From Thermodesulfobacteriota bacterium (GTDB taxonomy: Bacteria; Desulfobacterota; Desulfarculia; JACQYL01), in contig CAXXLZ010000002.1 in the NCBI GenBank assembly GCA_963675595.2, positions 64,001 to 128,000 on the forward strand: a DNA stretch of 64,000 nucleotides, written 5' to 3'. The notes under the pieces were generated by a model. That model was not told the DNA's origin. It did no database searches and saw only the letters and a program-made list of their open reading frames with translations. Of this stretch, positions 45,337-64,000 are shown one piece after another (the first letter of the stretch is position 1; each line of letters starts with the position of its first letter). The position numbers and the translations under genes are program-made.

Positions 45337-45935
45337 GATCGGACTCCTCTTTCCGCCCGGCGGATCGGCCTATGGTCCTCCTCGGTTTTGTTCGTGCAAA
45401 ACCGGTAGGTCGATCATTATCTAACTAATCGACAACTATATTATCTTAGAGTGTGTTGGGATAAGTTTCAAGAAAAAATATTCCGGACGACTCTCCTTAG
45501 CATAAACCATAGGCAAAATGCCCCAAAAAAAAGGATTGTGACTGCTGAATGCTTTAGCCTTCATTGGCATTGAAGCTAAAACGGAAAAGGGTTTGCGGAG
45601 ACGAGCTCACGATACCTCTATTTACAAAGCCAAGAACAAAGATTCACCATCCAACTTGATTTCAACAAAATGATATCTCCTTAACCTGAGCATCCAAATG
45701 TCCCGAAGAACTCCGAGCTTTTTGAGAAGAAGTCGGGTTCCATGGGAGGTTGTATGCTCCGGCAATTCCACGGATGAACTCGTCGAGAGCAGTTGACAAT
45801 CTGCCTACTTGCATGTACGTTAATTTCGGTGAACATTGAATATCCAAGGAAGGTCCAGGGGTAAGAAGGGCCGGATGCCAATCAACGTGAGGGGAAAGCC
45901 CCCGGCGCCAGACTTATGCGAGAAAGCGACTCAGG

Positions 45936-46874: not shown

Positions 46875-46960
46875 GCCGCCGGCGAAGGTCCGTTCACGCC
46901 CTCCGCCCGGACCTCACTCCCCTATTCGGCAATTGCGGCTTGATCGTGTTTACTTCCGCC

Positions 46961-47548
46961 TCAACTCATCACGGCCGCATAGAACTCCCGGCCCGCCTGA
47001 TAGGATTCTTCCAGGTAACGAGGATGCTTATCCACGTCACCCTCCAAATCCAGGCCCCGATACAGAAGACTGCGCCATAGTTCCGCATCCAAAGCATCAA
47101 GAAAATAGCGCACCGTCAGGAGGATTCCGTTGAACAACTGATTCCCATGGGTGGCTCCGGCCGAAATGAACAAGCCTTTCTTGGTGGGAATCCCTTCTCC
47201 AAATTTCACGCCGTCAATCCAATACTTCCGCACCCAAAGCGACTGGCAGCGATCCATCATCACCTTGGTAATCGCAGAAACCGAATAGAAGAAAACGGGG
47301 GATGCCAACATAACGCCCCGGCAACGATCAAAGGAATCGTGGAGTCTCTGAAAATCATCCCGGATTGCGCAGCGCCCGGACTCCCTACACGCATAGATCT
47401 CAAGGCACGGGGAAATTTTCAGGTCTCGTAATACGAATTCCTCCACTTCTCCTCCGGCGTCACGGACACCCCGGACCGCCTCTTTCAGCAAGGTCGAGGT
47501 GTTTCCCTTCCTGCGGGGACTCCCATACAACGCAACGATATTCGACAT
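46961..47548 (-). CDS. Iron-sulfur flavoprotein / NADPH-dependent FMN reductase family
   Basis: GSPRRKGNT, SPCLEIYACRESGRCAIRDD, ASPVFF, MDRCQ. Confidence 0.88.
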   Translation of the reverse strand: MSNIVALYGSPRRKGNTSTLLKEAVRGVRDAGGEVEEFVLRDLKISPCLEIYACRESGRCAIRDDFQRLHDSFDRCRGVMLASPVFFYSVSAITKVMMDRCQSLWVRKYWIDGVKFGEGIPTKKGLFISAGATHGNQLFNGILLTVRYFLDALDAELWRSLLYRGLDLEGDVDKHPRYLEESYQAGREFYAAVMS

Positions 47549-50700: not shown

Positions 50701-51054
50701 GTGGACGACGACGCCCGGTTCCTTGCCGAATTGAGATCCTACATGACGGGAGACAATCCCATTGCCGTCGAAACCCTTTCACGCCCCGACCTTGTCGTCG
50801 ATTATCTGCACGAGCATCCCGAAACGGATGTGGTGGTTTCCGAGATTATGACCGTCGGCGTATCCGGATGGAGTCTGTTGGAGCGCGTTAAACGTGAGTT
50901 CCCTCTGGTCTCCGTAATGCTTTACTCGGGAAACCCAATCTGTTTGAACAAACAGCCGGGAATCGCCGCGGATCCCGACCTGATTCTGCAGAAACCGTTT
51001 AAAATGAGAGAATTCATAGACGCTCTAACCACCCTGGATCGGCAGATATTATGA
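47761..51054 (+). CDS. Cytoplasmic multi-PAS hybrid histidine kinase
   Basis: About five PAS/PAC repeats (DVTERK, DISLRK, DITKRK, DITERK, DITEEK), AHEINNP, DNGIGM, FEPFFTTK, GTGLGL, degenerate C-terminal REC; exact start uncertain. Confidence 0.92.
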   Translation: MSRAERHFRMVGPPPPPNNQDRVAAAVEASGPTREQLVAELAELKRQVSEHQVIDRRRRETEEALRESQRKLFTLMGNLPGMVYRCRNDKDWTMEFVSDGCLNLTGYPPDHILWNRKKSYNQLIHLEDQDYVWNCIQTALKRNAPFRLTYRITNSGGNVRWVLERGIGIFDKAGRLIALEGFVTDVTERKLSEEALRKSEEKYRIITENATDIIWIVDLYGRFQVVSPSLERVLGYTLEEAASLTLRQILTRDSYKRAMMEIEKRLSHSFLTPGLDQDPAVLELEYLKKDGSKVWCEVTTKFLSDSTGRTMGITGITRDISLRKQVEENLIREKNFSETVINSLPGIFYIFDADGNLVRWNDNLETVTDYSFDEISAMTAFDLFSHENKPKATELLWDAFSKNKFSLEIDLLTKNGRKIPYFLTGIRNHIDDYKYILGVGIDITKRKRTEIALRESEERYRSVFENTGTATIMVEADMTISMVNSEWEKLSGYTGSEIEHKMKWTQFAAPEDIDRLKDYHTRRRTGDVGVPMEFEFRFVNRAGNVRDVLNKVFMVPGTEKSISSMLDITERKRVEENFRRTSEQLSVLLESLPIVPYTCRADGDFATTYVGNTVVEMTGYTPEQFLERPTFWAAHIHPDDRKKVFAELPELTKHGKWQYEYRFRTEDGRYKWFRDIRRMVGLPDGSISHIVGTWQDITEEKKLRQEAEYRLQQVIQADKLASLGEVVAGVAHEINNPNNFITSNIPLMEETWVMLEPILCRYATANPDWTRGGFGMAELCQDMHEMIEAVKAGSDRINRVVNNLKDFARVDEAGHPEPVDVNEVIEKTFNIVGAQVRKLVGRIEIDLSPSLPEISGHFQKLEQVAANLLVNGAQAIPEKSKGLLRITTKYLPHLNSVLLSVEDNGIGMEPSVREQIFEPFFTTKRTTGGTGLGLSVSYGLVREHRGIIGVLSKPGIGTRFAVLLPVNQVEPLDVRPVILCVDDDARFLAELRSYMTGDNPIAVETLSRPDLVVDYLHEHPETDVVVSEIMTVGVSGWSLLERVKREFPLVSVMLYSGNPICLNKQPGIAADPDLILQKPFKMREFIDALTTLDRQIL

Positions 51055-52421
51055 GCATACTCGTTGTCGACGACGAACAAGTGGCCCTCACATCCTACCG
51101 AAGACTCCTGAAGCGGCGGGGCTTTAAAGACGTGGATATCTGCGCCGACGGTAACGAAGCCATTGGGCTGATCAGAAACAACGACTACGACGTCGTTCTC
51201 TTGGACATTCTTATGCCGGGAGTGGATGGTCTCCAGGTTCTTGAAGCGACCAAACCCCACAAGCCGCGTACGGAATTCATAATTCTGACCGCGGTGGACG
51301 ACATCGCCACGGCGGTTAAGACGGTTCGACTGGGTGCTTACGATTATCTGGCCAAACCTCTGGATAACGAAAGACTGCTCCTATCCATCGAAAGAGCCTT
51401 CGAACGAAAAGGACTACGAGCGGCGCATACGGAAGCTTTTTCCAGGACCGCTCCCTCCAATGCTCTGGGACCCTTCCATGATATCGTCACCCAGTGTTCC
51501 AGGATCAAGGAACTGCTTTCCTTCGCCCAGGTGATGGCGAGAAGCGGCAATCCCATTCTCATCACGGGGGAATCGGGTACGGGCAAAGAACTTCTAGCGC
51601 GCGGAATCCACCGAGCCGGACCTTCTCCCGAAGGCCCCTTCGTCGCGGTGAACCTCTCGTCCATTCCGGACTCTCTCTTCGAAAGCCAGATTTTCGGTCA
51701 TGCCAAAGGAGCGTTTACGGGGGCGGACAGAGCCCACCCCGGCTTCTTCGAGCAGGCCGACGGAGGAACCCTGTTTCTGGACGAAATCGGTGAACTCCCC
51801 ATGAACCTTCAGGTCAAACTACTCCGAGTGCTCGAAGAAAAGACCGTCATAAGGCTTGGTGAAACCACCCCGATTTCCACGGACGTCCGCATCGTGTCCG
51901 CAACCAACCGGAACCTGGAAGAGGCCTGCCGCGTCGGCCGTTTCCGGCTGGACCTGATGTACAGACTGAATTCGGCACACATCTATCTTCCGCCTCTTCG
52001 AGAACGCCTCCCCGATATTCCGCTCCTTGCCGATCATTTCCTGGAGAAGTCCTGCGAACGTTTCGGCAAGGTTGTCACCGGGTTCACCCCCGAGGCTATG
52101 GATATCCTTCGAGGCAAGTCTTTTGAGGGAAACATTCGCGAACTCGGCCAACTCGTGGAAAAGGCGGTGCTCATGAGCCAGACAGGCAAGATCACTCCCG
52201 AGGATTTAGGTGAAAAATGCCCCCCGACCCATGACTTCCAACGACGGCTCTCCACCCTCAAAGAAAACACGGAGTCACACATCCTTTTCGTGCTGCGCAA
52301 CACGGGAGGGAATCGCAAAGAAACCGCCCGGATCCTGGATATCTCCTTGAGGCAGCTTCAGCGCAAACTGGCTGAAATGAGAGAAAAGGCCCCATGGAGC
52401 GAACTCATGGGCGACATTTAG
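51051..52421 (+). CDS. NtrC-family sigma54 response regulator
   Basis: [31 protein letters not shown]; ATGA overlap with the kinase. Confidence 0.95.
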
Positions 52422-52711
52422 GTCGCCGCCGCATGTCAAAAATGACACCCATCCCTTTTCCTTAATAAATCAAGCAGGTTATTCGACCGACTCCCGCGCC
52501 CGCCCGCCCCTGTCGTGTTTGACCAAAAGCGCATGATCCTCAAAGCGCAGCGCGATCCCGCATCCATTCCCGGACGCGGGCCCTTCCTCATTTCTCTTTC
52601 GTCTGTGGACGTCATTTTCGTCACCCCCTCTCCTCCCACCCAACGTCGTTCGTTTCCCTGATTCATGCGTAATTTTAGATAGTTCCAACTATGTCACTCT
52701 CCGTCCTCTCC

Positions 52712-52728
52712 ACGGCACATCGCTTGCT
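52712..52728 (+). promoter_or_regulatory. sigma54 promoter of the methylamine operon
   Basis: ACGGCAC-ATCGC-TTGCT with exact GG/GC spacing, about 120 nt upstream of mttC. Confidence 0.8.
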
Positions 52729-52847
52729 CTTACAGTGATGATGGGATGCCGTCGATGGATTCGAATTTCAACCTTCAATTACTCGGGGAGGTGATTTCTC
52801 AGATTAGAGCCCCAAGTCCGAAAATCAGATGAAAGGAGGGTAACCTT

Positions 52848-53492
52848 TTGAGCAAAGAAGCATTGATTGAGAAGGCCAAACAGGTGGTCATCGAAGGCGA
52901 CGAAGACGGCGCCGTGGAATTGGCCAACAAGGTGATCGAAGAGGGCGTCAACCCCGTCGAAATCATCAACGAAGGGTTGACGCCGGGAATGACGACCATC
53001 GGCGACATGTTCGGGAATGAGGAAATTCCTCTACCCGGCGTGTTGGTCGCCGCGGAAGCGATGACCAAGGCCATCGAAATCCTGGAGCCTCACATTCCCA
53101 AGGACAGCTCTTCCAAGAAGATCGGTACGGTGGTCATTGGAACCATCGAAGGGGACATCCACGACATCGGTAAACGGATCGTGGCCACGATGATGCGCGT
53201 GTACGGCTTCGACGTGCACGACCTCGGCCGAGACGTACCCATCGGCGACTTCGTGAACACGGCCAAAGAAGTCGGGGCGGATATCGTGGGGTCTTCCACT
53301 CTGATGACCACCACCATGGCCGGTCAGAAGACTCTGGAGGAAGAGCTGAACAAAGCGGGGATCCGGGACAAGGTCAAGACCATGATCGGTGGAGCGGCGA
53401 CGACTCAGGAATGGGCCAACAAAATCGGCGCGGACTGTTACGCCGAAGACTCCACGGACGCCGTGAGAAAGGCCAAAGAGCTCATTAGTTAA
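52848..53492 (+). CDS. mttC: Trimethylamine corrinoid protein
   Basis: GDIHDIGK (DxHxxG), GSSTLMTTT, MIGGA; TTG start after AGGAGG; adjacent to mttB. Confidence 0.88.
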   Translation: MSKEALIEKAKQVVIEGDEDGAVELANKVIEEGVNPVEIINEGLTPGMTTIGDMFGNEEIPLPGVLVAAEAMTKAIEILEPHIPKDSSSKKIGTVVIGTIEGDIHDIGKRIVATMMRVYGFDVHDLGRDVPIGDFVNTAKEVGADIVGSSTLMTTTMAGQKTLEEELNKAGIRDKVKTMIGGAATTQEWANKIGADCYAEDSTDAVRKAKELIS

Positions 53493-53563
53493 GGGAGGTG
53501 CACAGGTGATCCCAAGGCGACCGGAAATGGAAACACCAGACTTAGCGGAAAGGAGGTGAAAGG

Positions 53564-55027
53564 ATGATTCGAGGACTGAAAGCCGGAGTCATGAATCTGG
53601 AAGGCTTCGGTTTGAACATGTTCAGTCGTGATCAATTAGATGAACTCCACTATGCAACCCTCGACGTCCTTCAGAACTACGGCGTCCAGGTGTATTGCGA
53701 CGAAGCCCTGGATATTTTCGACGGAGCCGGGGCCTTTGTCGACCGAAAGACCAATCAGGTGCGCATCCCCGCCAATTTGGTGGAAGATGCCATTATATCG
53801 GCACCCAGTACGATTCTGCTGGCGGGACGTACGCCGGAATACGACGTCACCATCCAGCCTCGTCGACTCGGTTTTACCTGTTTCGGCGCGGGCGTCATGG
53901 TTGTGGACCCCTTCAACGGCGAATTCCGGGAGTCCAACAAGACCGACGTGGGTCACACGGCATTGGCTTGCGACGCCATGGATAACGTGGACATTTATTC
54001 CAGCGCCGTGGTGGCCAGGGATATTTCGGGCCCCGCCACCGACCTTCACGAAGCGGAAGCGTTTCTAAGCAACACCATGAAACACTGTCAGCACATCGAT
54101 TTGACGGGCGGCCCGGGAGCCAAGAAGTTCTTTGAAATGGCCGCGGCCGTCGTCGGTGGGCTGGACAAGCTGCGGGAGCGGCCCTTGGTATCCGCTCTGG
54201 TTTGCCCTACGAGCCCCCTGCAGCTCCACACCCATACCGCCGAGATCATCATTGAGTGCGCACGGTACGGGGTGCCCGTGAACGTTCTTTCCATGGCCAT
54301 GTCGGGAGCCTCTTCCCCGGTCACTCTGGCGGGAACCCTGGTGACGCACAACGCGGAAGTGCTCAGCGGCATCGTGTTGCACCAGCTCACCGCCAAGGGA
54401 GCGCCGGTCATTTACGGCAGCTCGACCACGACCTTCGACATGAATTACACCACCGCTCCCGTTGGTTCGCCTGAATTGGGAATGATCAGCGCCGGCGTGG
54501 TGGAACTGGCTCGTTACTACATGCTTCCGAGCTACGTCGCGGGAACATAGGCTGACAGCAAACTGTCCGACGCTCAGGCCGGGCATGAAAAGACCATCAC
54601 CTCTTTGCTTCCGGCGTTGGCGGGCGCCAACTTGATCTACGGGATGGGAATGCTGGAGTTAGGAGTGACTTTCAGCTTCGCTCAACTCCTGATCGATAAC
54701 GAAATCGCCGGGATGGTCAAAAGAGTGGTCCAGGGCATTCATATATCGGACGCGACCCTCGGGGTCGAGCTGATCAAAAAGGTCGGAGCCGGGAAGGACT
54801 TTCTCGCTGAAAAACACACCAGAGAGTGGATGGGATGCGAGCAGTCCAAGGTGAAGTTGATCGACCGCAGAATGCGAGGAAACTGGACGCGAAGAGGGGC
54901 CAAGGATCTGGGGCAGGCCGCCACGGAAAAGGCCAGGGAGCTTCTGGAAACCCATAAGGTGCCGGCGCTTCCGGACAACGTGCTGTCCACGTTTAGATCC
55001 ATCATTGAGGACGTTGAGAACGAATAA
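53564..55027 (+). CDS. mttB: Pyrrolysine-containing trimethylamine methyltransferase MttB (487 aa, Pyl329 at TAG 54548-54550)
   Basis: Frame continues through TAG: ...[41 protein letters not shown], the canonical MttB Pyl context; merges ORFs 53564..54550 and 54605..55027. Confidence 0.95.
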
Positions 55028-55174
55028 CGTCCTTTCGGCATAGACACCGATCGGAGGCAAAGCGGAGAACGGAACCCTTAACTCGATGAAACCTTTCGTC
55101 CGGATTGCAGAGTCTCTCCGGGTGAAGCGAATTCGACGAGAACCGGGGCCGTACCGCGTGCCGACGTCACTTAC

Positions 55175-55217
55175 GGGCTTGGGAATCGGGCCGAAGGCCC
55201 GTTTCCCGGTCCTTTTC
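55175..55217 (+). terminator. Terminator-like hairpin between mttB and mttP
   Basis: gggaatcgggcc-gaa-ggcccgtttccc followed by ggtcc-tttt. Confidence 0.5.
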
Positions 55218-55443
55218 ACCCGGTCCGGTTTCGGGTGCCGGGTTTCGCAGTCTCCCTTACGTCCACCGTCCGGCATATGCTGCGAGCCCGAAAAACAACG
55301 AGGTTCAAACCATATCCGAGTCGTTGGCTCGGTACGGGGCTTCAAGCTTCTCGGAGTAACCAACGATGCCACGCGTGTGATCGATACGACCGTCGGATGG
55401 GTGTACCGCGCGATCTAGACAAAACGAGTTGGAGGAGGACTGA

Positions 55444-56511
55444 ATGCAGACATTAGAACAAGCGAGAGTTCAGTACCGGAACCGTTCGGTGAAATGGGGG
55501 TTCATCTGGGCGCTCTGGTGCGCCATCCTCTGGGGCGCTTGGTACGTCCCCGGCACCGCGGTTTGGTACGAAGCTCCCTTCGTCGACATGGCCTTCGAAA
55601 CCCCGGGAGAAACTTTGCTCGCGGCGGCGATCATCACCACGCTGAATGCGGTCGCCGTCCTGCTTTTCCTGTTCATTTGGGTGGGGACCCTCGGGAAGCT
55701 GTCCGATTATGGACGAACCATACGGCAAATGAAGAAGATATCCTTCTGGTATTTCTTCGCCGCGATTTTCGGAGGGCCGTGCGCCATTTACGGATCTTAC
55801 CTGGCCATCGCCTATGTAGGGCCCGTTTTCGCGGCCATCGCCGCTCTCCTTTATCCCGTAGTCGGGGCCACCATCGCCCGCCTCTGGTATAATGAAAAAA
55901 TAACGACTCGGGCCGCTCTTGGGATATTCATCATTATCTCCGGCGGCGTGGTCGTCTACGGTCCGGGAATTTTCGGTGAGATGTCCGGTGCCTCGGACGC
56001 CTCCTGGATCGGCTACCTTGGGGGAGCCATGGCGGCTCTCGGCTGGGGGATCGAAGGAGCCATCGCGGGTCGTGCCCTGGACGTTACTGATCCCGACGTG
56101 GGCATCACCGTCCGATTCACCGCGGAAACCGCTTATTGGGTGTTCATTATCCTTCCGCTGGTCGCTCTGTTCAGCGACGCGCCCGTGTGGTCTCTCGTGG
56201 GACGGACGCTGACTTCCATGGGAGTGGTGTGGCTCCTGCTGGCCGGCATCACCTTCGCTTTCTGTTACGTGTCCTGGTACAAATCCTTCCCCCTCATCGG
56301 CGTGGGTCGAGGCCAGGCCATCGCGGACCTTTACGGCGTCTTCGCCGTGTTATGGCTCCTTATCTTCACTCTGGACGTTCCCCAATGGAATTTCGTGATC
56401 GGATTATTGCTCACGATCTTCGGCGGTTTCGTCATGTACACCGAAAAATCCGAAGTCATCGAAGTCGTCCGCGCCGTGGGCAAGGGCGATGAAACTGCGG
56501 AGGCATGCTGA
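55444..56511 (+). CDS. mttP: DMT/EamA-family methylamine permease (MttP-like)
   Basis: About 10 TM segments; WALWCAILWGAWYVPG, AIFGGP, ALLYPVVG, WYKSFPLIGVGRGQ as recalled for methanogen MttP. Confidence 0.8.
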   Translation: MQTLEQARVQYRNRSVKWGFIWALWCAILWGAWYVPGTAVWYEAPFVDMAFETPGETLLAAAIITTLNAVAVLLFLFIWVGTLGKLSDYGRTIRQMKKISFWYFFAAIFGGPCAIYGSYLAIAYVGPVFAAIAALLYPVVGATIARLWYNEKITTRAALGIFIIISGGVVVYGPGIFGEMSGASDASWIGYLGGAMAALGWGIEGAIAGRALDVTDPDVGITVRFTAETAYWVFIILPLVALFSDAPVWSLVGRTLTSMGVVWLLLAGITFAFCYVSWYKSFPLIGVGRGQAIADLYGVFAVLWLLIFTLDVPQWNFVIGLLLTIFGGFVMYTEKSEVIEVVRAVGKGDETAEAC

Positions 56512-56801
56512 TGGGACAGGTTCATATGAAAGGTTTCATCCTCCAGCTTCTGGCCAAGAACCCCGACGGATTGTGGGACCACGAGATATCCAAGGAAACT
56601 CTGGCGCAATATGATTGCACCGGAGACTATTGGAAGTCCACGGTTCGTGTAACCCTGACGGACCTTTATTCCGGCGGACTTGTGGAAGAGCTTGAGGATA
56701 GACTCGACCAGGGAGAACATTTTGGACCGGGCAAGGTATTGGTGAAATTCAGACTAAGCGACTTCGGTCGTTCCCGTATGCAGGATACCGGTCTCTTGTA
56801 A
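56505..56801 (+). CDS. Small soluble hypothetical protein, possibly winged-helix fold
   Basis: Overlaps the permease stop; ILQLLAKNPDGLWDHEI...FRLSDFG. Confidence 0.7.
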   Translation: MLMGQVHMKGFILQLLAKNPDGLWDHEISKETLAQYDCTGDYWKSTVRVTLTDLYSGGLVEELEDRLDQGEHFGPGKVLVKFRLSDFGRSRMQDTGLL

Positions 56802-56833
56802 CGTCACCATGATATCATCGGAGGGAATGCATC

Positions 56834-56944
56834 ATGTCGTCTTTTTGGGGTTATACCGGAGCGGACATTTTAGCAATCGTCCTCATCACGGCTTTGAGCC
56901 TGGTGTGCCTGTACCAAGCGCGCACCTTTGTAAAGAAATTATAG
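56834..56944 (+). CDS. 36-aa single-TM microprotein (missed by ORF track)
   Basis: SD GGAGGG; MSSFWGYTGADILAIVLITALSLVCLYQARTFVKKL*. Confidence 0.6.
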   Translation: MSSFWGYTGADILAIVLITALSLVCLYQARTFVKKL

Positions 56945-57116
56945 TCGGGAACCGTTGGGCTGAGTAGAACTTTATAACCTGTCGGCATTATTCGACATAC
57001 CGCCCATCATTGTCAATTGTGGAGACCCATCGGGTCCTAATGTCCCATTGAACCTTTCCCGAACTCTGGTTTGATGATATAAACATGCATAAATAGAAGG
57101 GAGGTGAAAGCAAGAC

Positions 57117-57764
57117 ATGGATAAGAAAGAATGGTTCGAGAAAGCGGCCAAGACCGTGCTTGACGCGGATCAGGAAGCAGCCGTTAAGGTGGCTGAGGAG
57201 GCCGTTGCAGCCGGTATCAACCCCTTGGAAATGCTTAACCAGGGTTTTTCGGAAGGGATCATGCGTATTGGTGATCTTTTCGACCGAGGAGAAGTTTTTC
57301 TCCCCGAACTGATCATCGCTTCCGAAGCAATGGTCGCCGCCGTCAAGGTGCTGGAAGCGGCGTTGCCCGCTGAAGAACACAAGGAGAAGCTGGGCAAAGT
57401 CGTCATCGGAAGCATCGAAGGAGACGTTCACGACATCGGCAAAGGAATCATGGTCACCATGCTTCGCGTGTACGGGTTCGAGGTCTACGATCTCGGAAGA
57501 GACGTTCCCATCAAGTCCTTCGTTGACAAGGCGAAGGAGGTGGACGCGGACTTTGTGGGTTCTTCGGCCTTGATGACCACCACACAGGTGGGCCAGAAAG
57601 CGCTCGAGGCAGCACTGAGTGAAGCGGGACTCCGCGACAAGGTAAAAACCATGGTGGGCGGTGCTGTGGCTACCCAGCACTGGGCCAACAAAATCGGCGC
57701 CGATCTTTACGCCGAAACCGCGACGGAAGCCGTTATGAAGCTCAAGGAGCTTGCAGGCGGCTGA
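57117..57764 (+). CDS. mtbC: Dimethylamine corrinoid protein
   Basis: [22 protein letters not shown]; adjacent to mtbB. Confidence 0.88.
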
Positions 57765-57780
57765 GAAGGGAGGTGAGTCC

Positions 57781-59181
57781 ATGAAGAAATACCTCACCCG
57801 TCGGGGTGACGGAGTCCGCATCGAGATGACGGATGACGAACTCAGAGCCGACTTTGAGTCGGGCATCCAGGATGCGGCGGAAAGAGGGAAGATCGACCCC
57901 CTTTCCAACGAGGACCTCGACCGGCTGATGGACATTTTCACTGATCCCAATCGAATCGTCGGTGTGGAACCCGGGAACGAAGTTCCCTTGACCCACGATA
58001 TCGGTACGCTTCGTTTGATGGGCGATCAGGGAAACAGCGGCGTGGGAATACCGCTGAGCAGGGTCCACGGGATCCAGGTGCATGAACGGGCTTTCTGTTC
58101 CGACTCCATGGAGCTTGGACACATTGATTACAGCTTCAAGCCCATTAAACCCGTGATCGCCATGGAACAGCAGGAGTACGAGAATGCACAAATGTGCACG
58201 ATCATTCCTCTGTTGTACGGCGCCATGCCCAATCTGGGCCTTTATTACGCCCCGGACGGCCCCTTCGGGAACCCGTCCGATCTCTTGCCCGCGGGCAAAG
58301 TCAAAGAGGCGCTGGAAGCCCAGGAACAAGCGGTGGAACACGCCACCAAAGACATGATCTATATCTCCGAGAAGCTCGCAAATGTGGGCTGCGACGGGAT
58401 CAACTTCGACACCACCGGAGCCGCGGGCGACACGGATTTCGCCGCCACGCTCAAGGCGGTGGAACATCTGAAAAAGACCACCAACCTGGCCGTCCAGGTG
58501 GGCATGGCGGGCGAGTTCGTTCTGGGAATGCACGGCAGCCTCAAGTACAACGGAACCAGGCTGGCCGGGCTCTATCCCCACAAGCAACTCGAATTGGTGG
58601 AACAAGCGGGGGCGGACATCTTCGGACCCGTGGTAAACACCAAGCCGAGCAAGTCCATGGCTTGGAATCTGGCCCGGGCGGTTACCTTCGTCAAGGCGTG
58701 TACGGCCGTCGCCAAGATTCCCATCCATGTGAATATGGGAATGGGCGTGGGCGGCTCCCCCGTTTTCGAGACTCCGCCCATCGACAGCGTGACCCGCGCA
58801 TCCAAGGCCATGGTGGAAATCGGCCGCGCGGACGGGTTGTAGATAGGCGTGGGGGACCCCCTTGGGATGCCGATAGCTCACGGCATGGCAGCAGGCATGG
58901 GCGGAATCAGGACGGCCGGAGATCTGGTGGTCCGAATGCAACTGAGCCGCAAGATGCGGATTCAGGAAGCGAAAGCCTATGTGGCCGACAAGCTGAAAGT
59001 ATCCCCGGTAGACCTGTCGGACGAGAACGTGATGAGAGAAGTCCGCGAGGAGCTGGACATCGGAGTCATCACTTCGGTCCCGGGTTGTGCCAAAGGAATG
59101 GAAGCGAAAGCGAAAATCGCCGACTTGCTCGGCATTGAAATCAACAGTGTCAGCCGTTTCAAACGGAAGCTCGGTCTATAG
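57781..59181 (+). CDS. mtbB: Pyrrolysine-containing dimethylamine methyltransferase MtbB (466 aa, Pyl354 at TAG 58840-58842)
   Basis: [12 protein letters not shown]-terminus; ...[20 protein letters not shown]...[10 protein letters not shown], the canonical MtbB Pyl context; merges two ORF-track entries. Confidence 0.95.
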
Positions 59182-59191
59182 ACCGGAACAA

Positions 59192-59220
59192 GCGGGCTTC
59201 CCTCGGGAAGCCCGCCCTTT
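59192..59220 (+). terminator. Intrinsic terminator-like hairpin after mtbB
   Basis: gcgggcttcc-ctcg-ggaagcccgc followed by ccttt. Confidence 0.65.
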
Positions 59221-59275
59221 CAGGCGCCCGCTGGAGAGCACCAGACTCCCGGACGCCAATACAAGGAATCATTTG

Positions 59276-59866
59276 GTGAGCCGAAAAAACACACCCGACC
59301 TTCAGTCAGCGTTCCATTCCGCCGACCCCTCTTTGGAAGAAGCGTTCGAAGCGGTCTCCCGGGAGCACGGCGTTCGCGTGTATCCTCTTGAATTGGAGAG
59401 CATCAAGCCTTCGTACAGCATCCGTCTCAAGTGTCAGGTGCCCTTGTGCGAATATTACGGTGTGTCCAAAGTATGCCCGCCGAACATCCCGGATGTCCCC
59501 GAATTCCGTGAAGCGATGAAGGATTATCGGATGGCGTTTCTGGTGGTGTACACGGAACGCATCGACAACATTCAGCACTATCGAAAGGACTTCACCGCGG
59601 AGCGAAAGCTCGCCGACGCGGTCTCCGCCTTGGAGGCGGCGGCTTATCGGCACGGTTGGTATCGGGCGTTGGGACTGTGCGTGGGGGGTTGCAAGCTGTG
59701 CCCAAGCTGTGCGGGGGCCGACGAGCCATGTCGGCATCCCTTTAAGGCCCGCCCCAGTCCGGAAGGGTTCGGCATCGACGTAACCGAACTCGCCCGCAAT
59801 CTGGGAGTGGCGGTCGAATGGCCTCCCCGCGACCAAGTCAACTTCTTGGGCCTTCTGTTCCTCTGA
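59276..59866 (+). CDS. DUF2284-like Cys-rich metal-binding protein
   Basis: RLKCQVPLCEYYG...CPP, GGCKLCPSC, CRHPFKARPSPEGFGIDV; start approximate (TTG 59273 or GTG 59276). Confidence 0.8.
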   Translation: MSRKNTPDLQSAFHSADPSLEEAFEAVSREHGVRVYPLELESIKPSYSIRLKCQVPLCEYYGVSKVCPPNIPDVPEFREAMKDYRMAFLVVYTERIDNIQHYRKDFTAERKLADAVSALEAAAYRHGWYRALGLCVGGCKLCPSCAGADEPCRHPFKARPSPEGFGIDVTELARNLGVAVEWPPRDQVNFLGLLFL

Positions 59867-59968
59867 TTCGCGACCAGGCACGGTATGAAACCGCCGTTTC
59901 TTTTTCTTCTTCAGGAATCATCGTCTCGAGAATCATGATCGAGGCGAGATGGAGTTTGAGGATATATA

Positions 59969-60937
59969 ATGTTCAGCATGCTCAGCTGTTATGATCGGGT
60001 CCGCAAGGAAGTCGTCGGCAGGGAAGTGGAAGCCAAATCCATTCTCGTGGCCATGGATGCGGGAAAACACATACTTCTCGAAGGACCTCCGGGAACCTCC
60101 AAGTCCACTCTTTTAAGAATCATCGCGAAGGAAAGCGGCATCCCCTTGTATATCATCGAAGGCAACATCGATCTGACCCCGGCCAAGCTCGTGGGGCATT
60201 TCAATCCCTCCAAGGTGATGTCCGACAGCTATCAGCCCGAATATTTCGAAAAGGGTCCCCTGACGAACGCCATGGAAGTAGGAGGGATACTGTACATCGA
60301 GGAATTTAACCGGATGCCCGCCGACGTAGCCAATGTACTCATCTCCCCCATGGAAGAAGGCGAAATGACCATTCCCAGGTACGGCAAGATCAAGGCCGTA
60401 CGCCCCTTCACCGTGATCGCGGCCCAGAACCCTTACGATGATGTGGGCACCGTGAGGGTGAGCAGGGCCTTTATGGATCGGATTTGCCTGATCCGCATGA
60501 CGTATCAGAGTGAAGAAGAAGAGATGGAGATCGTACGGAAAAGATCCACGTCCGAGGATCTCGAAGCGATCGCTTTGGCGGTGGCCATGGCGAGAAAGAC
60601 CAGGGAGCACGAGGACATCAAGCTGGGAGCGTCCGTGCGTGCCGCCATCGATCTGGCGGACATCTATTGGGGACTGCAGAAACTGGCCCGGGACCCGGTC
60701 CGGAACTTCCTCATCGCCGCAAGAATGGCCATGTCCAATAAAATATGGCTCAATGAGATGGCCGCCGACACGGCGGATACGATCATTGAACAGATTTTCG
60801 CCTCCCTGCGCAGCAAATACGGCCGCTTTTTGTACAGGAAGGAAGGCGACGAGGCCGGCGACGGCGTGGAGACGTCGGGCCAAGAATCCCTCGAAGCGGA
60901 CTTGGATATCGAAGAAAAAAAAAAGATCGCTATGTAG
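59969..60937 (+). CDS. MoxR/chelatase-like AAA+ ATPase
   Basis: Walker A GPPGTSKST, variant Walker B LYIEE, AAQNP, SRAFMDR, ASVR; acidic tail ending in an A10 run. Confidence 0.9.
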   Translation: MFSMLSCYDRVRKEVVGREVEAKSILVAMDAGKHILLEGPPGTSKSTLLRIIAKESGIPLYIIEGNIDLTPAKLVGHFNPSKVMSDSYQPEYFEKGPLTNAMEVGGILYIEEFNRMPADVANVLISPMEEGEMTIPRYGKIKAVRPFTVIAAQNPYDDVGTVRVSRAFMDRICLIRMTYQSEEEEMEIVRKRSTSEDLEAIALAVAMARKTREHEDIKLGASVRAAIDLADIYWGLQKLARDPVRNFLIAARMAMSNKIWLNEMAADTADTIIEQIFASLRSKYGRFLYRKEGDEAGDGVETSGQESLEADLDIEEKKKIAM

Positions 60938-60960
60938 GGGATAAGTTCCTCGATCGGATT

Positions 60961-61791
60961 ATGACGGGGTCGTCCTATTATTACCGGGTGGCCACGCACC
61001 TGAACAACAACCCGGACGATCTGGTCCCTTTTTTTGAGAAGCAGGACTCCCTGGAAGTATTCGCCAACATTCTGGGGATGCTGAAAAAGGACGTGAGGGA
61101 GATGGCGGCCCAGATCGCCGGCCGCATCATCATCAAGATCGCCAAACAAATCGCGGACACGGGGACGCGTTCCGGCAAGCTCAAGTTGGTCAGAGGGTGG
61201 GTGGACGGCGCGGAACTTGAGCTCGATCTGAGCCTTGAACAATACACCGAAGCGCCCGAGTTGGGCATCGTGGAAAACCTGGTTTCCTATATCAGAAAGC
61301 GGGAGAAGGAAGCCTTCATCATGTTCCTGGACCACAGCTACTCCATGAAGGGGCTCAAGATCGTTTTAGCGGCCATCACCGCGGCTTCCATCGCTCAGCA
61401 CTTCAAGCGGGACTATGCCATCATGGCGTTCAGCAATTCGGTCACCATGCTCAAAGCCATCGACGAATCCACCGGACCCGAGGAGATTCTGCAAAGGCTC
61501 TTCGCTCTGGAACTTTATGGCGACACGGATTTTCAGCGGGCGTTGGAGGCCGGCCTTTACCACCTGAGAAACTTCGACCGGAAGAGAGGGCTGATTCTAA
61601 CGGACGGAGCCTGGAACCAGGGTGGAGATCCACTGGACGCGGCCGCTCGTTTCGACAAGCTCAGCGCCATAGGCTTTCCCCCGTCCAAACACGAAAAAAT
61701 CAGGATTCTGGCGCTCAAAGGCAAAGGGGAATGCGCCTTCGTGGAAAACCAGCATGAGATATCTCGAGCCATCATCCGTTGCCTGAACTGA
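60961..61791 (+). CDS. von Willebrand factor A (MIDAS) domain; probably expressed as a frameshift fusion with the AAA+ ATPase
   Basis: DHSYS (DxSxS), GDTD, ILTDG; no SD before ATG 60961; frame open upstream across the slippery site. Confidence 0.85.
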   Translation: MTGSSYYYRVATHLNNNPDDLVPFFEKQDSLEVFANILGMLKKDVREMAAQIAGRIIIKIAKQIADTGTRSGKLKLVRGWVDGAELELDLSLEQYTEAPELGIVENLVSYIRKREKEAFIMFLDHSYSMKGLKIVLAAITAASIAQHFKRDYAIMAFSNSVTMLKAIDESTGPEEILQRLFALELYGDTDFQRALEAGLYHLRNFDRKRGLILTDGAWNQGGDPLDAAARFDKLSAIGFPPSKHEKIRILALKGKGECAFVENQHEISRAIIRCLN

Positions 61792-61846
61792 CTCCACGAC
61801 GGAACGCGAATCCATCATGACCGAAAGCGTAAGAACGAAATCCAAA

Positions 61847-61918
61847 GGAGGGTTGATCGGCAAGATCATGAAGACTCTAAATCTTCACAGCCGGGTTGAA
61901 CTCCCGGACCCTCCTCCA
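61847..61918 (+). tRNA. pylT: tRNA-Pyl (anticodon CUA)
   Basis: Acceptor GGAGGGT/ACCCTCC; one-nt linker; D-arm GATC-GGCAA-GATC; 6-bp anticodon stem TGAAGA/TCTTCA with loop CTCTAAA; 3-nt variable loop CAG; T-arm CCGGG-TTGAACT-CCCGG lacking TTC; T73; encoded CCA. Confidence 0.96.
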
Positions 61919-61961
61919 ATTTTCGTATCCGTTTGCCGACGGTGCATGAAGGCGTAGACTT

Positions 61962-62288
61962 ATGGGCATGCCTCAACGAAAAGCACCAGCGGCGACGAAG
62001 AAGGCGAAGAAGACTTTCTTTCGCAAAAGAGAAGACTTGGGAATGGTGCTTCAAAAGGTGAAGCTCTGGCCTTCGCGGAACGGGACCCTGCATGGAGTGC
62101 GCACCATCGTGGTGAAGGGAGCTTTCATTGATTTCACCACCCATTGCGGCCAGAAGCTACGCATCAAGAATTCGAAGAGCAGCAGGGTGTCCCGGTGGCT
62201 CAGGAACAAGTGGTACGTCAGACCTTGTTCCGGGTGTCGGGTCCCTACATGGAAACTTGAGAAATACTCCCAAACGTCTTTTCGATAA
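61962..62288 (+). CDS. pylSn: Pyrrolysyl-tRNA synthetase N-terminal domain protein
   Basis: KVKLWPSRNGTLHG, TTHCG, SRWLRNKW, CSGCRVPTWKLEKY; directly follows pylT. Confidence 0.93.
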   Translation: MGMPQRKAPAATKKAKKTFFRKREDLGMVLQKVKLWPSRNGTLHGVRTIVVKGAFIDFTTHCGQKLRIKNSKSSRVSRWLRNKWYVRPCSGCRVPTWKLEKYSQTSFR

Positions 62289-62343
62289 CCGACGAGTTCG
62301 ATCCTTCGCCGATCGATCTCCACGATGGAAGGTGAAAGTGCCC

Positions 62344-63516
62344 ATGACCGGACGAGACAATCGTCTCACAGCTGTTTTGGACGGAGTGCTGCAAGGAGGC
62401 GCCCTATCCCGCCGAGACGCGGAAACCCTGCTTTCCGCTTCAGACCCTCAGGATGTGGACAGAATTACCCAAGCGGCCCGGATCATGAGGGCGCGGCTTT
62501 TCGCCGACTCCGTTTTTCTTTACGGTTTCGTCTATTTTTCGACCTATTGCAGGAATTCCTGTACGTTTTGTTTCTACCGCAGGGGCAACAAGCAAAGCCC
62601 CAGGTACCGAAAGACCGAAACGGAGGTCAAGGACATCGCCCTCGGACTTGCCGCGTCCGGGGTTCATCTGGTGGATTTGACCATGGGTGAGGACCCATGG
62701 ATCTACGAGCGGCAGGATTACGGCGTACTCTACCGGATAGTGGGAGGCATCCGAGACGCCACGTCGGTTCCCCTCATGATTTCGCCCGGAGCCGTGCCCG
62801 ACGAGGTGCTCCGGACCTTGGCGGCTCAAGGTGTGGACTGGCTGGCCCTGTACCAGGAAACCCACAACCGAAGTCTATACGGGAAGCTCAGAGTCGGACA
62901 GAGTTACGACGAACGGGTGGAAAAGCGGAATCTGGGCGCACGGCTGGGAATGCTCGTGGAAGACGGGATTCTGCTGGGCGTGGGAGAATCCGTGCGGGAC
63001 CGGGCGGATTCCATCATGAACATGCGCTCCGGCGGATCGGACCAGGTCCGCGTCATGAGCTTTGTTCCGCAACCGGATACCCCCCTCGCCGATCGACAAA
63101 CGCCTCCCAGGCGACTCGAGCGCCTTTGCATCGCGGTCATGCGCCTCGCCATGCCGGATCGGCTGATCCCGGCTTCTCTGGACGTGGACGGCATCAACGG
63201 GCTGCGGATGCGTCTCGAAGCGGGAGCCAACGTGGTCACTTCCATCATACCGCCCCGAAGTCGCCTCGCGGGAGTTTCCCAGAGCAGTTTGGATATAGAG
63301 CCCGGTCACAGAACCGTGGCGGAGGTACGGAAGATTCTCGACGATATGGGCATGAAAGCGGCTTCCTTGTCTGAGTATGAATCATGGATGAAACAAAGAA
63401 AGCTGTTGAAAACCGGCCGGTCGGAACAAATCCAAATCGGTCTTTCCGCACTTCCCGACACGCACGCCGGCGACGTACCGAGCCATCCCCTCGGTCTGCA
63501 TCACACATATCCTTGA
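62344..63516 (+). CDS. pylB: Methylornithine synthase PylB (radical SAM)
   Basis: YGFVYFSTYCRNSCTFC (CxxxCxxC), DLTMGEDP, LYQETH, LIPASLDVDG, GANVVTSIIP; start set at ATG 62344. Confidence 0.95.
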   Translation: MTGRDNRLTAVLDGVLQGGALSRRDAETLLSASDPQDVDRITQAARIMRARLFADSVFLYGFVYFSTYCRNSCTFCFYRRGNKQSPRYRKTETEVKDIALGLAASGVHLVDLTMGEDPWIYERQDYGVLYRIVGGIRDATSVPLMISPGAVPDEVLRTLAAQGVDWLALYQETHNRSLYGKLRVGQSYDERVEKRNLGARLGMLVEDGILLGVGESVRDRADSIMNMRSGGSDQVRVMSFVPQPDTPLADRQTPPRRLERLCIAVMRLAMPDRLIPASLDVDGINGLRMRLEAGANVVTSIIPPRSRLAGVSQSSLDIEPGHRTVAEVRKILDDMGMKAASLSEYESWMKQRKLLKTGRSEQIQIGLSALPDTHAGDVPSHPLGLHHTYP

Positions 63517-63653
63517 GCCCGAAAGCCGTGAGCCCTGAGACCCCTCGGGGCCCGGAGGAACGCCGACGAGGCAAGACGGCACCCCCTTTCGGCGTCGGCG
63601 GAATCGCAGCAACTGCTGATCCAGCCATAACGCAAAACCTGGAGGTAACCTAA

Positions 63654-64000
63654 ATGACAGCCAAAGAACGAGTCATGGCCGTCCTGAACCACGAGAAACC
63701 GGATCAAATGCCCGTTTTTGGGGCAAATTCCACGGTCACCTATGATCAAATGGAAAAGGTATCCGCTTTCTGGCCTAAAGGTCACGAGGACGGCGAGACC
63801 ATGGCCAAGCAGGCCATGGCCGCTTACACCATGCTGGGATTCGATGCGGTCCGGGTCCCTTTCTGCCAGACCTTCGAAGCGGAAGCTTTGGGATGCAAAG
63901 TCAAGTCGGGCGGCGACAAGGGTATTCCCGGCATTGATCATCCCCCGCCGTACAAGCTCGAGGACACCCCGGCCTTCCCCTCGGACTTCCTTTCCAGAGG
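63654..64000 (+). CDS. MtaA/CmuA (UroD-fold) methylcobamide methyltransferase, truncated by window edge
   Basis: SD GGAGG; MTAKERVMAVLNHEKPDQMPVF...GFDAVRVPFCQTFEAEALGC. Confidence 0.85.
   Translation, partial: MTAKERVMAVLNHEKPDQMPVFGANSTVTYDQMEKVSAFWPKGHEDGETMAKQAMAAYTMLGFDAVRVPFCQTFEAEALGCKVKSGGDKGIPGIDHPPPYKLEDTPAFPSDFLSR

Follow-up and report, generated by a model that had tools for sequence, protein, structure and literature searches.

A probable Desulfobacterales-type bacterial locus for pyrrolysine-dependent demethylation of trimethylamine and dimethylamine

The 64 kb stretch of DNA analyzed here (the window), which comes from a 4.73 Mb contig, carries a genuine cluster of genes predicted from their sequences to be responsible for the pyrrolysine (Pyl)-dependent demethylation of trimethylamine (TMA) and dimethylamine (DMA) (Table 1). 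The family matches of the methyltransferase, pylT, pylSn and pylB genes are far beyond chance, and we consider it likely that this is a bacterial locus of the Desulfobacterales type.

Table 1. Features of the methylamine locus and of the region immediately upstream, in window coordinates
Feature	Position	Strand	Support
Multi-PAS sensor histidine kinase, C-terminal receiver	47761..51054	+	Pfam PAS_3, PAS_9, PAS, HATPase_c, Response_reg
Sigma-54-dependent response regulator (receiver, AAA+, HTH_8), terminator TAG	51051..52421	+	PF00158 211.7 bits, PF00072, PF02954
Sigma-54 -24/-12-like element CGGCAC-N5-TTGCT	52713..52728	+	~120 nt upstream of mttC
Corrinoid protein adjoining mttB (MttC-like)	52848..53492	+	TIGR02370 253.7 bits vs 215.3; Pfam B12-binding, B12-binding_2
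mttB, trimethylamine:corrinoid methyltransferase	53564..55027	+	TIGR02369 725.7 bits vs cutoff 525; terminator TAA
Rfam PYLIS_3 match	54548..54647	+	First base = TAG; 80.1 bits vs gathering score 38
EamA-family membrane protein (mttP-like permease candidate)	55444..56511	+	PF00892 44 bits
Corrinoid protein adjoining mtbB (MtbC-like)	57117..57764	+	TIGR02370 244.2 bits vs 215.3
mtbB, dimethylamine:corrinoid methyltransferase	57781..59181	+	TIGR02368 655.3 vs cutoff 369.1; PF09505 749.9 bits
Rfam PYLIS_2 match	58840..58939	+	First base = TAG; 80.6 bits vs gathering score 36
DUF2284 predicted metal-binding protein	59087..59866	+	PF10050 137.1 bits, ORF residues 101-258
MoxR-type AAA+ ATPase, terminator TAG	59969..60937	+	PF07728 80.7 bits; PF07726
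VWA-domain protein, presumed MoxR ATPase partner	60961..61791	+	PF05762 VWA_CoxE 32.9 bits
pylT, tRNA-Pyl, anticodon CUA, CCA encoded	61847..61918	+	ARAGORN; own covariance model
pylSn, small (N-terminal) subunit of split pyrrolysyl-tRNA synthetase	61962..62288	+	TIGR03912 109.9 bits vs 51.15
pylB, methylornithine synthase (radical SAM)	62344..63516	+	TIGR03910 449.4 bits vs 348.2
MtaA/MtbA-family (URO-D fold) methylcobamide methyltransferase gene, cut by window end	63654..64000	+	

As pointed out in the preliminary description of this DNA, standard gene calling (translation table 11) breaks the two methyltransferase genes into four open reading frames, namely 53564..54550 (328 aa) and 54605..55027 (140 aa) for mttB, and 57751..58842 (363 aa) and 58849..59181 (110 aa) for mtbB; public protein sets hold the MtbB of the window as a 353-aa fragment. 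When the in-frame TAG codons at 54548-54550 and 58840-58842, positions that agree with the preliminary description, are read through, mttB becomes a single frame of 487 aa and mtbB a single frame that includes the motif RADGL-O-IGVGDP and itself terminates with TAG (59179-59181). The equivalog models for trimethylamine methyltransferase (TIGR02369) and dimethylamine methyltransferase (TIGR02368) span the respective read-through products end to end. Both TAG codons are located at the Pyl columns, as claimed previously. In the alignment with Methanosarcina MttB that had been proposed as a check, the TAG falls on the Pyl residue (X in YVAGSXSDAK) of the Methanosarcina barkeri protein (7xcl_A; 479-482 bits), to which the read-through product aligns over the full length (7XCL, 7XCM, 7XCN). 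Among the homologues from the fetched loci, the TAG occupies the DG[LI]-O-[VI]GVGDP column in 16 of 16 MtbB sequences, and a single in-frame TAG is present in 17 of 20 MttB sequences, in the same column as in the window in all 7 pairwise alignments. The MtbB entries named for Methanohalophilus and Methanohalarchaeum stop exactly at the TAG column.

The regions downstream of the two TAG codons are conserved at the protein level. In the comparison with the Desulfobacterales bins L001 and L002, pN for MtbB is 0.136-0.138 after the TAG (pS 0.51-0.55) and 0.132-0.140 before it, and for MttB, pN and pS after the TAG are 0.130-0.168 and 0.73-0.82, respectively. Because pN after the TAG is as low as before it, the post-TAG parts of both genes are, judging from these values, under purifying selection. 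The folding z-scores of the PYLIS_3 and PYLIS_2 regions (0.08 relative to shuffles and -0.43, respectively) do not support an RNA structure, and these two matches reflect conserved coding sequence.

The pylT gene is the only tRNA gene detected by ARAGORN in the 64 kb. The covariance model check suggested in the preliminary description was performed with a model derived from tRNA-Pyl genes at other loci (48 distinct genes), and the pylT site is its only match in the window (full length, 87.2 bits, E-value 1.3e-20), without any non-standard pair. The same components are found in a compact bacterial cassette, locus L003 (pylT-pylSn-pylSc-pylB-pylC-pylD), the pylT gene of which is identical to that of the window in 69 of 72 bases, with two of the three differences forming a compensatory pair in the anticodon stem; the PylSn proteins are 77% identical. 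Both pylSn and pylB proved to be real genes, with scores above the TIGR03912 and TIGR03910 cutoffs, and the pylB match covers positions 3-347 of the 347 in the latter model. In 185,579 species genomes, the best PylB relative reaches just 60% identity.

NCBIfam and Pfam matches bear out the described gene set, with mttC-mttB, mtbC-mtbB, a permease gene and an MtaA-like gene. The MttC-like protein is 77-78% identical to its counterparts in L001 and L002, and the MtbC-like protein scores below the MtbC equivalog cutoff (NF041607, 232.1 vs 350). The EamA-family protein, which has no NCBIfam match, is 63% identical to a protein of L026 and 45% identical to the protein encoded after mttB-mttC in two loci of the Methanomassiliicoccus type, L038 and L057. 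The DUF2284 protein (65-67% identical to those of L001 and L002) and the MoxR ATPase (68-70% identical to those of L001, L002 and L004) are encoded in the same positions in these loci, and the VWA protein is 68-69% identical to those of L001, L002 and L004. The DUF2284 domain starts near 59387, the start codon of its gene being uncertain. The truncated MtaA/MtbA-family product (115 aa; NF004889, E-value 1.6e-29; PF01208, 62 bits) is 72% identical to that of the full-length gene of L002, which exceeds the cutoffs of both NF004889 (305.4 vs 244) and TIGR01463 (264.8 vs 235.4).

The nearest relatives of the locus are Desulfobacterales metagenome bins. The gene order mtbC-mtbB-DUF2284-MoxR-VWA-pylB is shared with L001 and L002, and MoxR-VWA-pylB is shared with the compact cassette of L004, which continues with pylT-pylSc-pylC-pylD-pylSn. 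MtbB and MttB are 77-80% identical to those of the closest Desulfobacterales bins, and the trees of both proteins place the window with Desulfobacterales (98-99 SH-aLRT). These affinities agree with the Desulfobacterota assignment in the preliminary description; judging by the locus itself, the host is probably a member of this phylum. The characterization of the gene set as methanogen-like fits only in part; its closest relatives are bacteria, first Desulfobacterales and next Actinomycetota.

An alternative without Pyl takes the two TAGs for plain stop codons or errors of assembly, and the fragments for separate or broken genes. The four table 11 frames agree with it, but it is refuted by the sequence evidence and has practically no probability: the homologues counted above, from independent assemblies, carry the TAG in the same column wherever aligned, a single HMM runs unbroken across both halves of each gene, and a dedicated tRNA(CUA) is encoded 3 kb away. 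It is also very improbable that a methylotrophic methanogen was the direct donor of the cluster in a recent transfer between domains. In the MtbB tree, the clade of Desulfobacterales and Actinomycetota joins archaeal sequences (Methanohalophilus, Methanohalarchaeum and Methanomassiliicoccaceae; 99 SH-aLRT), with the Bacillota-type MtbB apart, and the similarity of the permease to the protein in the mttP position of Methanomassiliicoccus-type loci points in the same direction. However, among the matches listed and the loci, MtbB identity is 77-85% for the Desulfobacterales type and 74-75% for Actinomycetota, compared to 60-63% for archaea; in the MttB tree, the window groups with Actinomycetota and the single archaeal row is not its sister; and PylS is split in the bacterial manner. 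Both trees are unrooted quick searches on small samples (28 rows for MtbB and 21 for MttB, comprising PylB-linked loci and 11 of the best 120 database matches).

A bacterial Pyl system that is incomplete or recently disabled, such that pylSc, pylC and pylD are gone, both TAGs terminate translation and the locus is a relic, appears unlikely, albeit less so than the preceding alternatives. Neither these three genes or their remnants nor ramA and mtmB were found in the 64 kb (tblastn, best E-value 0.065); pylSn abuts pylB across a 55-bp spacer where L003 carries pylSc; and pylB is followed by the MtaA-like gene, whereas in 68 of the 75 loci that extend far enough beyond pylB, the start of pylC is no more than 1 kb from the pylB end. 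In searches of a set of 5.8 billion proteins, no protein from a contig of 4,730,252 nt, the length of the contig of the window, was among the best 120 of 1973 matches to the PylSc of L003 (reaching down to 54% identity) or the best 120 of 3066 matches to that of L004 (reaching to 68%); a PylSc less than about 55% identical to the former or 68% to the latter would be missed by these lists. For four relatives (MtbB 77-81% identical), the listed matches do include an L003-like PylSc, encoded on a contig equal in length to that of their MtbB. On the other hand, the retained genes are all intact and above curated cutoffs, pylT contains no mispair, and the post-TAG regions show purifying selection, although this test averages over long divergence and is blind to recent loss. 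Moreover, pylC is likewise missing from the vicinity of pylB in L001, L002, L015 and L018, all related bins, and the 4 of the 75 loci that lack pylC altogether are all labelled Desulfobacteraceae or Desulfobacterales, so a detached pylB is normal for this lineage. Our preferred reading is that the host probably decodes these TAGs as Pyl, with pylSc, pylC and pylD presumably located elsewhere in the genome.

Pyl-encoding MtbB and MttB, together with a full pyl set, have been reported for a deltaproteobacterium, the delta-1 symbiont of the worm Olavius algarvensis (Zhang and Gladyshev, 2007; PMC1976440), and subsequently for marine Desulfobacterales genomes, most of which are described as encoding, with in-frame Pyl, several TMA methyltransferases and a methyltransferase for DMA (Kivenson et al., 2021; PMC8318568). 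The novelty of the locus was accordingly overstated: clusters of this kind were already known from related lineages of sulfate reducers, and the present one adds an example rather than a new kind. As far as the loci are described in these reports, the window shares with them the TAG in mttB and mtbB, the cognate corrinoid proteins, pylT, split pylS, pylB and the Desulfobacterales-type background. It differs in that pylT-pylSn-pylB stand alone behind DUF2284-MoxR-VWA, without pylSc, pylC and pylD; in the presence of an MtaA/MtbA-family gene, whereas the 2021 study states that its own two genomes lack MtbA (PMC8318568); and in its source, a contig of 4.73 Mb instead of a fragmented bin. The adjacent corrinoid partners are shared with the methanogen sets, and a permease gene near mttB/mttC with the mttP arrangement reported for Methanomassiliicoccus luminyensis (PMC5688252). 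In contrast to the methanogen sets, the window has the bacterial split PylS, and its methyl acceptor is probably not coenzyme M. Acetohalobium arabaticum, a bacterium from a different phylum, likewise keeps TAG as a stop with reported use of Pyl in TMA metabolism (cited in PMC8318568); for the window, sigma-54 control is a prediction.

In the proposed mechanism, a single UAG in each of the MttB and MtbB messages would be translated by Pyl-tRNA(CUA) from pylT, and the active-site Pyl would bind and activate TMA or DMA, the methyl group being taken up by the Co(I) corrinoid that the neighbouring MttC-like or MtbC-like protein carries. A C1 carrier, most likely tetrahydrofolate in a bacterium, could then receive it from the MtaA-family methyltransferase; for the marine genomes, tetrahydrofolate has been proposed as the methyl acceptor and the Wood-Ljungdahl pathway as the route of oxidation (PMC8318568). 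The EamA-type membrane protein probably imports the amines. PylB is predicted to make 3-methylornithine, the first Pyl precursor, and PylSn to be the tRNA-binding subunit of the split PylRS, whereas pylSc, pylC, pylD and the activase gene ramA would have to reside elsewhere on the contig.

The histidine kinase gene overlaps the start of the regulator gene by 4 bases. The -24/-12-like element, with one mismatch to TGGCAC-N5-TTGCW, is the sole match in the 52422-52847 spacer; window-wide, this pattern is no more common than expected by chance (20 matches vs 22.1 expected), so only the position of the element is suggestive. Together, the regulator pair and this site suggest induced expression, and the PAS kinase and the sigma-54 regulator probably activate the cluster in response to methylamines. 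If so, amber suppression would be conditional in a genome where TAG is a normal stop. The use of Pyl by A. arabaticum reportedly depends on the carbon source, a finding attributed to Prat et al. in 2012.

Flagellar genes occupy 4391-43130, in line with the flagellated bacterium of the preliminary description. A point against Pyl decoding, and a difference from the methanogen sets, is that TAG still serves as a normal stop codon: of the 39 genes with family support in the window, 10 end in TAG, mtbB among them. Were these codons read through, FlhA would continue in frame into FlhF (415 codons), and FliL likewise into FliM (339 codons).

The read-through product of the trimethylamine (TMA) enzyme gene mttB matches TIGR02369 over the complete model (positions 1-469 of 469, 725.7 bits versus 525), and that of the dimethylamine (DMA) enzyme gene mtbB matches TIGR02368 (655.3 bits versus a cutoff of 369.1) and PF09505 (749.9 bits, positions 2-462 of 463). 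The in-frame TAG codons are located where the preliminary description placed them, at 54548-54550 in mttB (residue 329) and at 58840-58842 in mtbB (residue 354), and standard gene calling indeed breaks the two genes into four open reading frames (ORFs): under the standard bacterial code, mttB is split into ORFs 53564..54550 and 54605..55027, and mtbB into ORFs 57751..58842 and 58849..59181, each pair fusing to a single frame once the TAG is read through. The proposal that both codons occupy pyrrolysine (Pyl, O) columns is borne out by a solved structure for MttB and by homologues for MtbB. In the alignment with the Methanosarcina barkeri MttB chains (479-482 bits across residues 7-484), the TAG falls on the X of YVAGSXSDAK in 7xcl_A and on K in the variant chain 7xcm_A. 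One in-frame TAG is present in 17 of the 20 MttB homologues from pylB-bearing loci of other genomes (denoted L below), and it is found on the same column as in the window in all seven pairwise alignments made; the three TAG-less homologues are non-Pyl members of the superfamily. The MtbB codon lies in the context RADGL-O-IGVGDP, and all 16 MtbB homologues from these loci contain exactly one in-frame TAG, in the column DG[LI]-O-[VI]GVGDP. The MtbB entries of Methanohalophilus halophilus and Candidatus Methanohalarchaeum stop precisely at this column; a search for a solved MtbB structure (E up to 0.01) yielded none. By family (TIGR02369/PF06253), MttB is a Pyl-dependent TMA:corrinoid methyltransferase, with TMA activity predicted.

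The MtbB of the window is stored in a large public protein set as a 353-aa fragment, and 116 of its best 120 database matches are at most 357 aa long, which is consistent with truncation at the TAG. Four full-length proteins (P0056, P0081, P0092 and P0082; 466-468 aa) are also found among these best 120 matches, with Q in the Pyl column of three and L in that of one. These are either calls made under a code in which TAG specifies a residue or genuine non-Pyl variants of MtbB.

Pairwise codon comparison with the two closest loci gives similar values on both sides of the TAG: for MttB, pN is 0.123-0.128 before and 0.130-0.168 after the codon, with pS of 0.68-0.84 and 0.73-0.82, respectively; for MtbB, pN is 0.132-0.140 before and 0.136-0.138 after, with pS of 0.75-0.81 and 0.51-0.55 (synonymous sites are near saturation, so proportions rather than ratios are given). 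The excess of synonymous over non-synonymous change is thus alike before and after the TAG, which shows, at the level of sequence, long-term selection on full-length MttB and MtbB, and would be compatible with a recent loss in the lineage of the window. The Rfam PYLIS models (RF02509, RF02510) match both genes, PYLIS_2 in mtbB (80.6 bits versus a gathering score of 36) and PYLIS_3 in mttB (80.1 bits versus 38); both matches start at the TAG, and positions 1-3 (UAG) of PYLIS_2 align to 58840-58842. The 100 nt following the TAG fold no better than shuffled sequences in either mttB (z 0.08, 104 of 200 shuffles equal or better) or mtbB (z -0.43, 65 of 200), so the PYLIS matches are read as conserved coding sequence and PYLIS as an RNA structure is rejected. 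In the cmscan alignments, several base pairs of the models are occupied by non-standard combinations.

Profile matches and the tRNA search agree with the gene identities proposed previously throughout the locus, including pylSn and pylB, both of which exceed curated cutoffs (see the table).

Features of the window that are relevant to the methylamine locus, with their positions and supporting matches
Feature	Position	Match or remark
Flagellar cluster	4391-43130	fliA, flhF, flhA, flhB, fliR, fliP, fliN, fliM, fliL, motAB, flgE, flgD, fliI, fliH, fliG, fliF, flgC, flgB, fliD
Multi-PAS histidine kinase and sigma-54-dependent response regulator	47761-52421	upstream of the locus
-24/-12-like site	52713-52728	CGGCAC-N5-TTGCT
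Corrinoid protein gene before mttB (mttC-like)	52848-53492	TIGR02370, 253.7 bits (cutoff 215.3); B12-binding
mttB	53564-55027	
EamA-family membrane protein gene	55444-56511	between the two methyltransferase pairs
Corrinoid protein gene before mtbB (mtbC-like)	57117-57764	TIGR02370, 244.2 bits (cutoff 215.3); B12-binding
mtbB	57781-59181	
DUF2284 protein, MoxR-type AAA+ ATPase and VWA protein genes	59087-61791	downstream of mtbB
pylT, tRNA-Pyl(CUA)	61847-61918	sole tRNA gene in the window (ARAGORN)
pylSn	61962-62288	TIGR03912, 109.9 bits (cutoff 51.15)
pylB	62344-63516	TIGR03910, 449.4 bits (cutoff 348.2)
MtaA/MtbA-family methyltransferase gene		first 115 codons, ends at the window edge

Both corrinoid proteins score below the cutoff of the MtbC equivalog model NF041607 (232-238 bits versus 350), and the amine that each probably serves is assigned from the neighbouring gene only. 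A protein cluster look-up places MttC and MtbC each alone in its cluster at 90% identity. The EamA-family protein shares 45% identity with the protein encoded next after mttB-mttC in L038 and L057, two loci of the Methanomassiliicoccus type; this position bears the name mttP in M. luminyensis in the accessible text of PMC5688252. No curated MttP model exists, and the comparison is one of gene position. The spacers on the two sides of this gene, of 416 bp (55028-55443) and 605 bp (56512-57116), contain no Rfam match at the gathering score and no ramA remnant. Here the window differs from L002, a locus labelled Desulfobacterales, in which mtaA and ramA are located between mttB and mtbC, with RamA (TIGR04270, 764.2 bits versus 500) encoded between mtaA and mtbC. 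The 115-aa portion of the MtaA/MtbA-like protein scores 103 bits against the NF004889 cutoff of 244, for a partial gene only; the L002 gene that is 72% identical to it passes the model cutoff (NF004889/TIGR01463). Between fliD and the histidine kinase gene (43285-47548), there are five ORFs of 146-312 aa that have no NCBIfam match at E up to 1e-10.

The preliminary description had recognized a structurally complete tRNA(CUA). A covariance model based on 48 different tRNA-Pyl genes from other loci finds a single site in the window, the pylT gene (87.2 bits, E 1.3e-20), complete and with all pairs standard; in the model alignment, its anticodon stem has six pairs, its D loop five bases and its variable loop three. 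The window pylT and pylSn are nearest to those of L003: pylT differs in 3 of 72 bases, two of these being compensatory changes of one anticodon-stem pair, and PylSn is 77% identical. The L003 record, nearest in pylT (69 of 72 bases identical) and PylSn, is labelled Firmicutes bacterium UBA2595. PylSc proteins that are 61-74% identical to that of L003 pair with MtbB that are 77-81% identical to that of the window, on contigs of the same size. Either the L003 label is doubtful or a pylT-pylS module has moved between phyla.

No gene or remnant for pylSc (the catalytic half of the split PylRS, of which pylSn encodes the small half), pylC, pylD, ramA or mtmB is found in the window by tblastn (best E 0.065), with PylSc, PylC and PylD of L003 and L004, RamA of L002 and MtmB of L003 as queries. 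The contig of the window is also missing among the best 120 of 1973 matches to the L003 PylSc (at least 54% identity) and among the best 120 of 3066 matches to the L004 PylSc (at least 68% identity); the largest contigs among the matches listed are 1,256,766 nt and 32,311 nt, respectively. The miss is worth noting because an L003-like PylSc is among the matches listed for four relatives with similar MtbB, on contigs of 14,994, 13,974, 30,611 and 15,802 nt, the same sizes as those carrying their MtbB. One reading is that the genome lacks pylSc, pylC and pylD, and that Pyl-tRNA would be formed via a pathway yet to be recognised, for instance by scavenging of pyrrolysine or of its intermediates, or by another ligase that cooperates with PylSn, with pylT, pylSn, pylB and the two intact Pyl-type methyltransferase genes kept under selection; the genes for the DUF2284, MoxR and VWA proteins might be part of such a route. 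We consider this reading very improbable. The PylSc miss is not evidence of absence from the contig, because an L004-type PylSc below 68% identity or an Actinomycetota-type one at about 54% falls below the matches listed; the L004-type clade alone fills the 120 matches above 68%.

The position of pylB in related loci bears on the same question. With the window PylB as query, a scan of 185,579 species, each represented by a single genome, yielded 260 relatives, the best of which is only 60% identical (58-60% for the best ones), so the genome of the window itself lies outside this set; the best 80 were retained. Judged by genes other than pylB, the closest loci among these 80 are three bins: L001, labelled Desulfobacteraceae (MtbB 79%, MttB 80%, MoxR 70%, VWA 68% and DUF2284 65% identity), L002 (MtbB 77%, MttB 79%, MtaA-like 72%; RamA present) and L004, labelled Deltaproteobacteria (MoxR 68%, VWA 68%). 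In 68 of the 75 loci whose sequence extends 1.5 kb or more past pylB, pylC begins at most 1 kb from the end of pylB, including three (L040, L050 and L071) in which pylC overlaps this end by a few bases; among the other seven, pylT-pylSc intervene in L004, pylC is located elsewhere in the locus in L013 and L076, and four loci (L001, L002, L015 and L018) contain no pylC. The latter are all labelled Desulfobacteraceae or Desulfobacterales, so the detached pylB is a lineage trait that the window shares. The covariance model finds no pylT in these four loci. The gene order is mtmB-pylT-pylSn-pylSc-pylB-pylC-pylD in L003 and MoxR-VWA-pylB-pylT-pylSc-pylC-pylD-pylSn in L004.

The order mtbC-mtbB-DUF2284-MoxR-VWA-pylB is common to L001 and L002, in which the trio between mtbB and pylB spans 4215-6599 and 7552-9959, respectively; in L004, MoxR-VWA precede pylB (3-1708). 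Among the best 80 loci, MoxR/VWA matches are found in four and DUF2284 in two; the trio or its MoxR-VWA part accompanies pylB in three of the 80 and in the window. A more distant MoxR/VWA pair (52% and 40% identical) is located near pyl and mtt genes in L062 from Actinomycetota (10412-12168, minus strand). MoxR-VWA pairs usually serve cofactor insertion or enzyme maturation, and the trio may act in the maturation of the methyltransferase or of the corrinoid system. A full-text literature search on DUF2284 and corrinoids yielded a single paper, on selenoproteomes.

Trees were obtained with quick, unrooted IQ-TREE searches (SH-aLRT support in parentheses). The MtbB tree (28 rows: the complete set of 17 full-length window and locus sequences, plus 11 chosen from the best 120 database matches) places the window with L001, L002 and six database sequences (98); an Actinomycetota clade is sister to this group (92), and together they join archaeal sequences (99), away from the Bacillota-type MtbB. 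In the MttB tree (21 rows), the window clusters with L001 and L002 (99), Actinomycetota join next (95), and the single archaeal row is not sister to the window. With respect to archaeal versus bacterial origin, a question raised at the outset, both trees indicate that the nearest relatives of the locus are bacterial; the MtbB tree leaves room for an old exchange with archaea, in either direction.

In the proposed mechanism, the steps from Pyl synthesis to methyl transfer onto the corrinoid follow established knowledge of these families, and the acceptor, import and regulation are what we infer here. PylB, PylC and PylD would make Pyl from lysine; PylSc would charge it onto tRNA-Pyl while PylSn holds the tRNA, and Pyl would be inserted at the single UAG of mttB and of mtbB. 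The Pyl residue is expected to activate the methylamine, whose methyl would pass to the Co(I) corrinoid of the adjacent protein, kept reduced by RamA. The MtaA-family enzyme would then pass the methyl on, most likely to tetrahydrofolate, as proposed for Desulfobacterales in the accessible text of PMC8318568; the EamA protein is a probable amine importer, and the sigma-54 regulator and the -24/-12-like site might control expression of the cluster. Actual use of Pyl by this organism is predicted from its genes, and its membership of Desulfobacterota is presumed from the relatives of this locus.

The observation of a Pyl-type methylamine locus is confirmed, and the novelty initially attached to it was too generous. 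According to the accessible text of PMC1976440 (2007), the delta-1 symbiont of Olavius algarvensis encodes MtbB (six genes) and MttB (two genes) with in-frame TAG together with pylT, pylSn, pylSc and pylBCD. The accessible text of PMC8318568 (2021) describes marine Desulfobacterales genomes that encode a Pyl-type TMA methyltransferase along with the machinery for Pyl; in its survey, most such genomes also have a DMA methyltransferase with in-frame Pyl. The genomes of that study itself are described there as lacking MtbA, so the MT2 gene in the window and L002 is a difference. Particular to the present locus are its detached pylT-pylSn-pylB, its DUF2284-MoxR-VWA trio, its MT2 gene and the sigma-54 pair upstream. 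The locus overturns nothing in current understanding; it adds a case, on a long contig (4.73 Mb), of a bacterium equipped for TMA and DMA demethylation via Pyl enzymes, a trait argued in the accessible part of PMC8318568 to put sulfate-reducer lineages in a position to compete for sediment methylamines with methylotrophic methanogens, and further demonstrates that standard gene calling splits Pyl genes. It is also a tractable case for studying sigma-54 control of the cluster, the function of the conserved DUF2284-MoxR-VWA genes beside pylB, and how a bacterium in which TAG ends about one quarter of sampled genes limits the cost of amber suppression.

Among 39 family-supported genes of the window, 10 end in TAG, 20 in TGA and 9 in TAA; the TAG-terminated genes include mtbB, moxR and the sigma-54 regulator. 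Conditional expression of the cluster would make sense given this use of TAG. The -24/-12-like site is located about 120 nt before mttC, just past the sigma-54 regulator gene; the pattern is no commoner than chance window-wide (20 matches versus 22.1 expected), so position alone favours this site. Consensus scans of 52400-64000 were uninformative: the 4 promoter-like sites (4.0 expected) all fall on the minus strand, and the 20 terminator-like sites (12.2 expected) are mostly intragenic.

Read-through of the second TAG of mtbB, its own terminator at 59179, would extend the protein by 69 residues, as far as the TGA at 59389-59391; the L002 mtbB terminates in TAA. On the minus strand, amber read-through of the flhA stop (7625-7627) would yield an FlhA-FlhF fusion with 415 more codons, and that of the fliL stop (14334-14336) a FliL-FliM fusion with 339 more codons. 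The in-frame downstream neighbours may be coincidental; these fusions would serve as markers of off-target suppression. Other one-mismatch sigma-54 matches are located in the flagellar cluster on the minus strand (9828-9843, 17394-17409, 24753-24768 and 32426-32441), one of them just upstream of flgB and one upstream of motA, and two sigma-54 activator genes (32524-33918 and 37102-38568) are found nearby.
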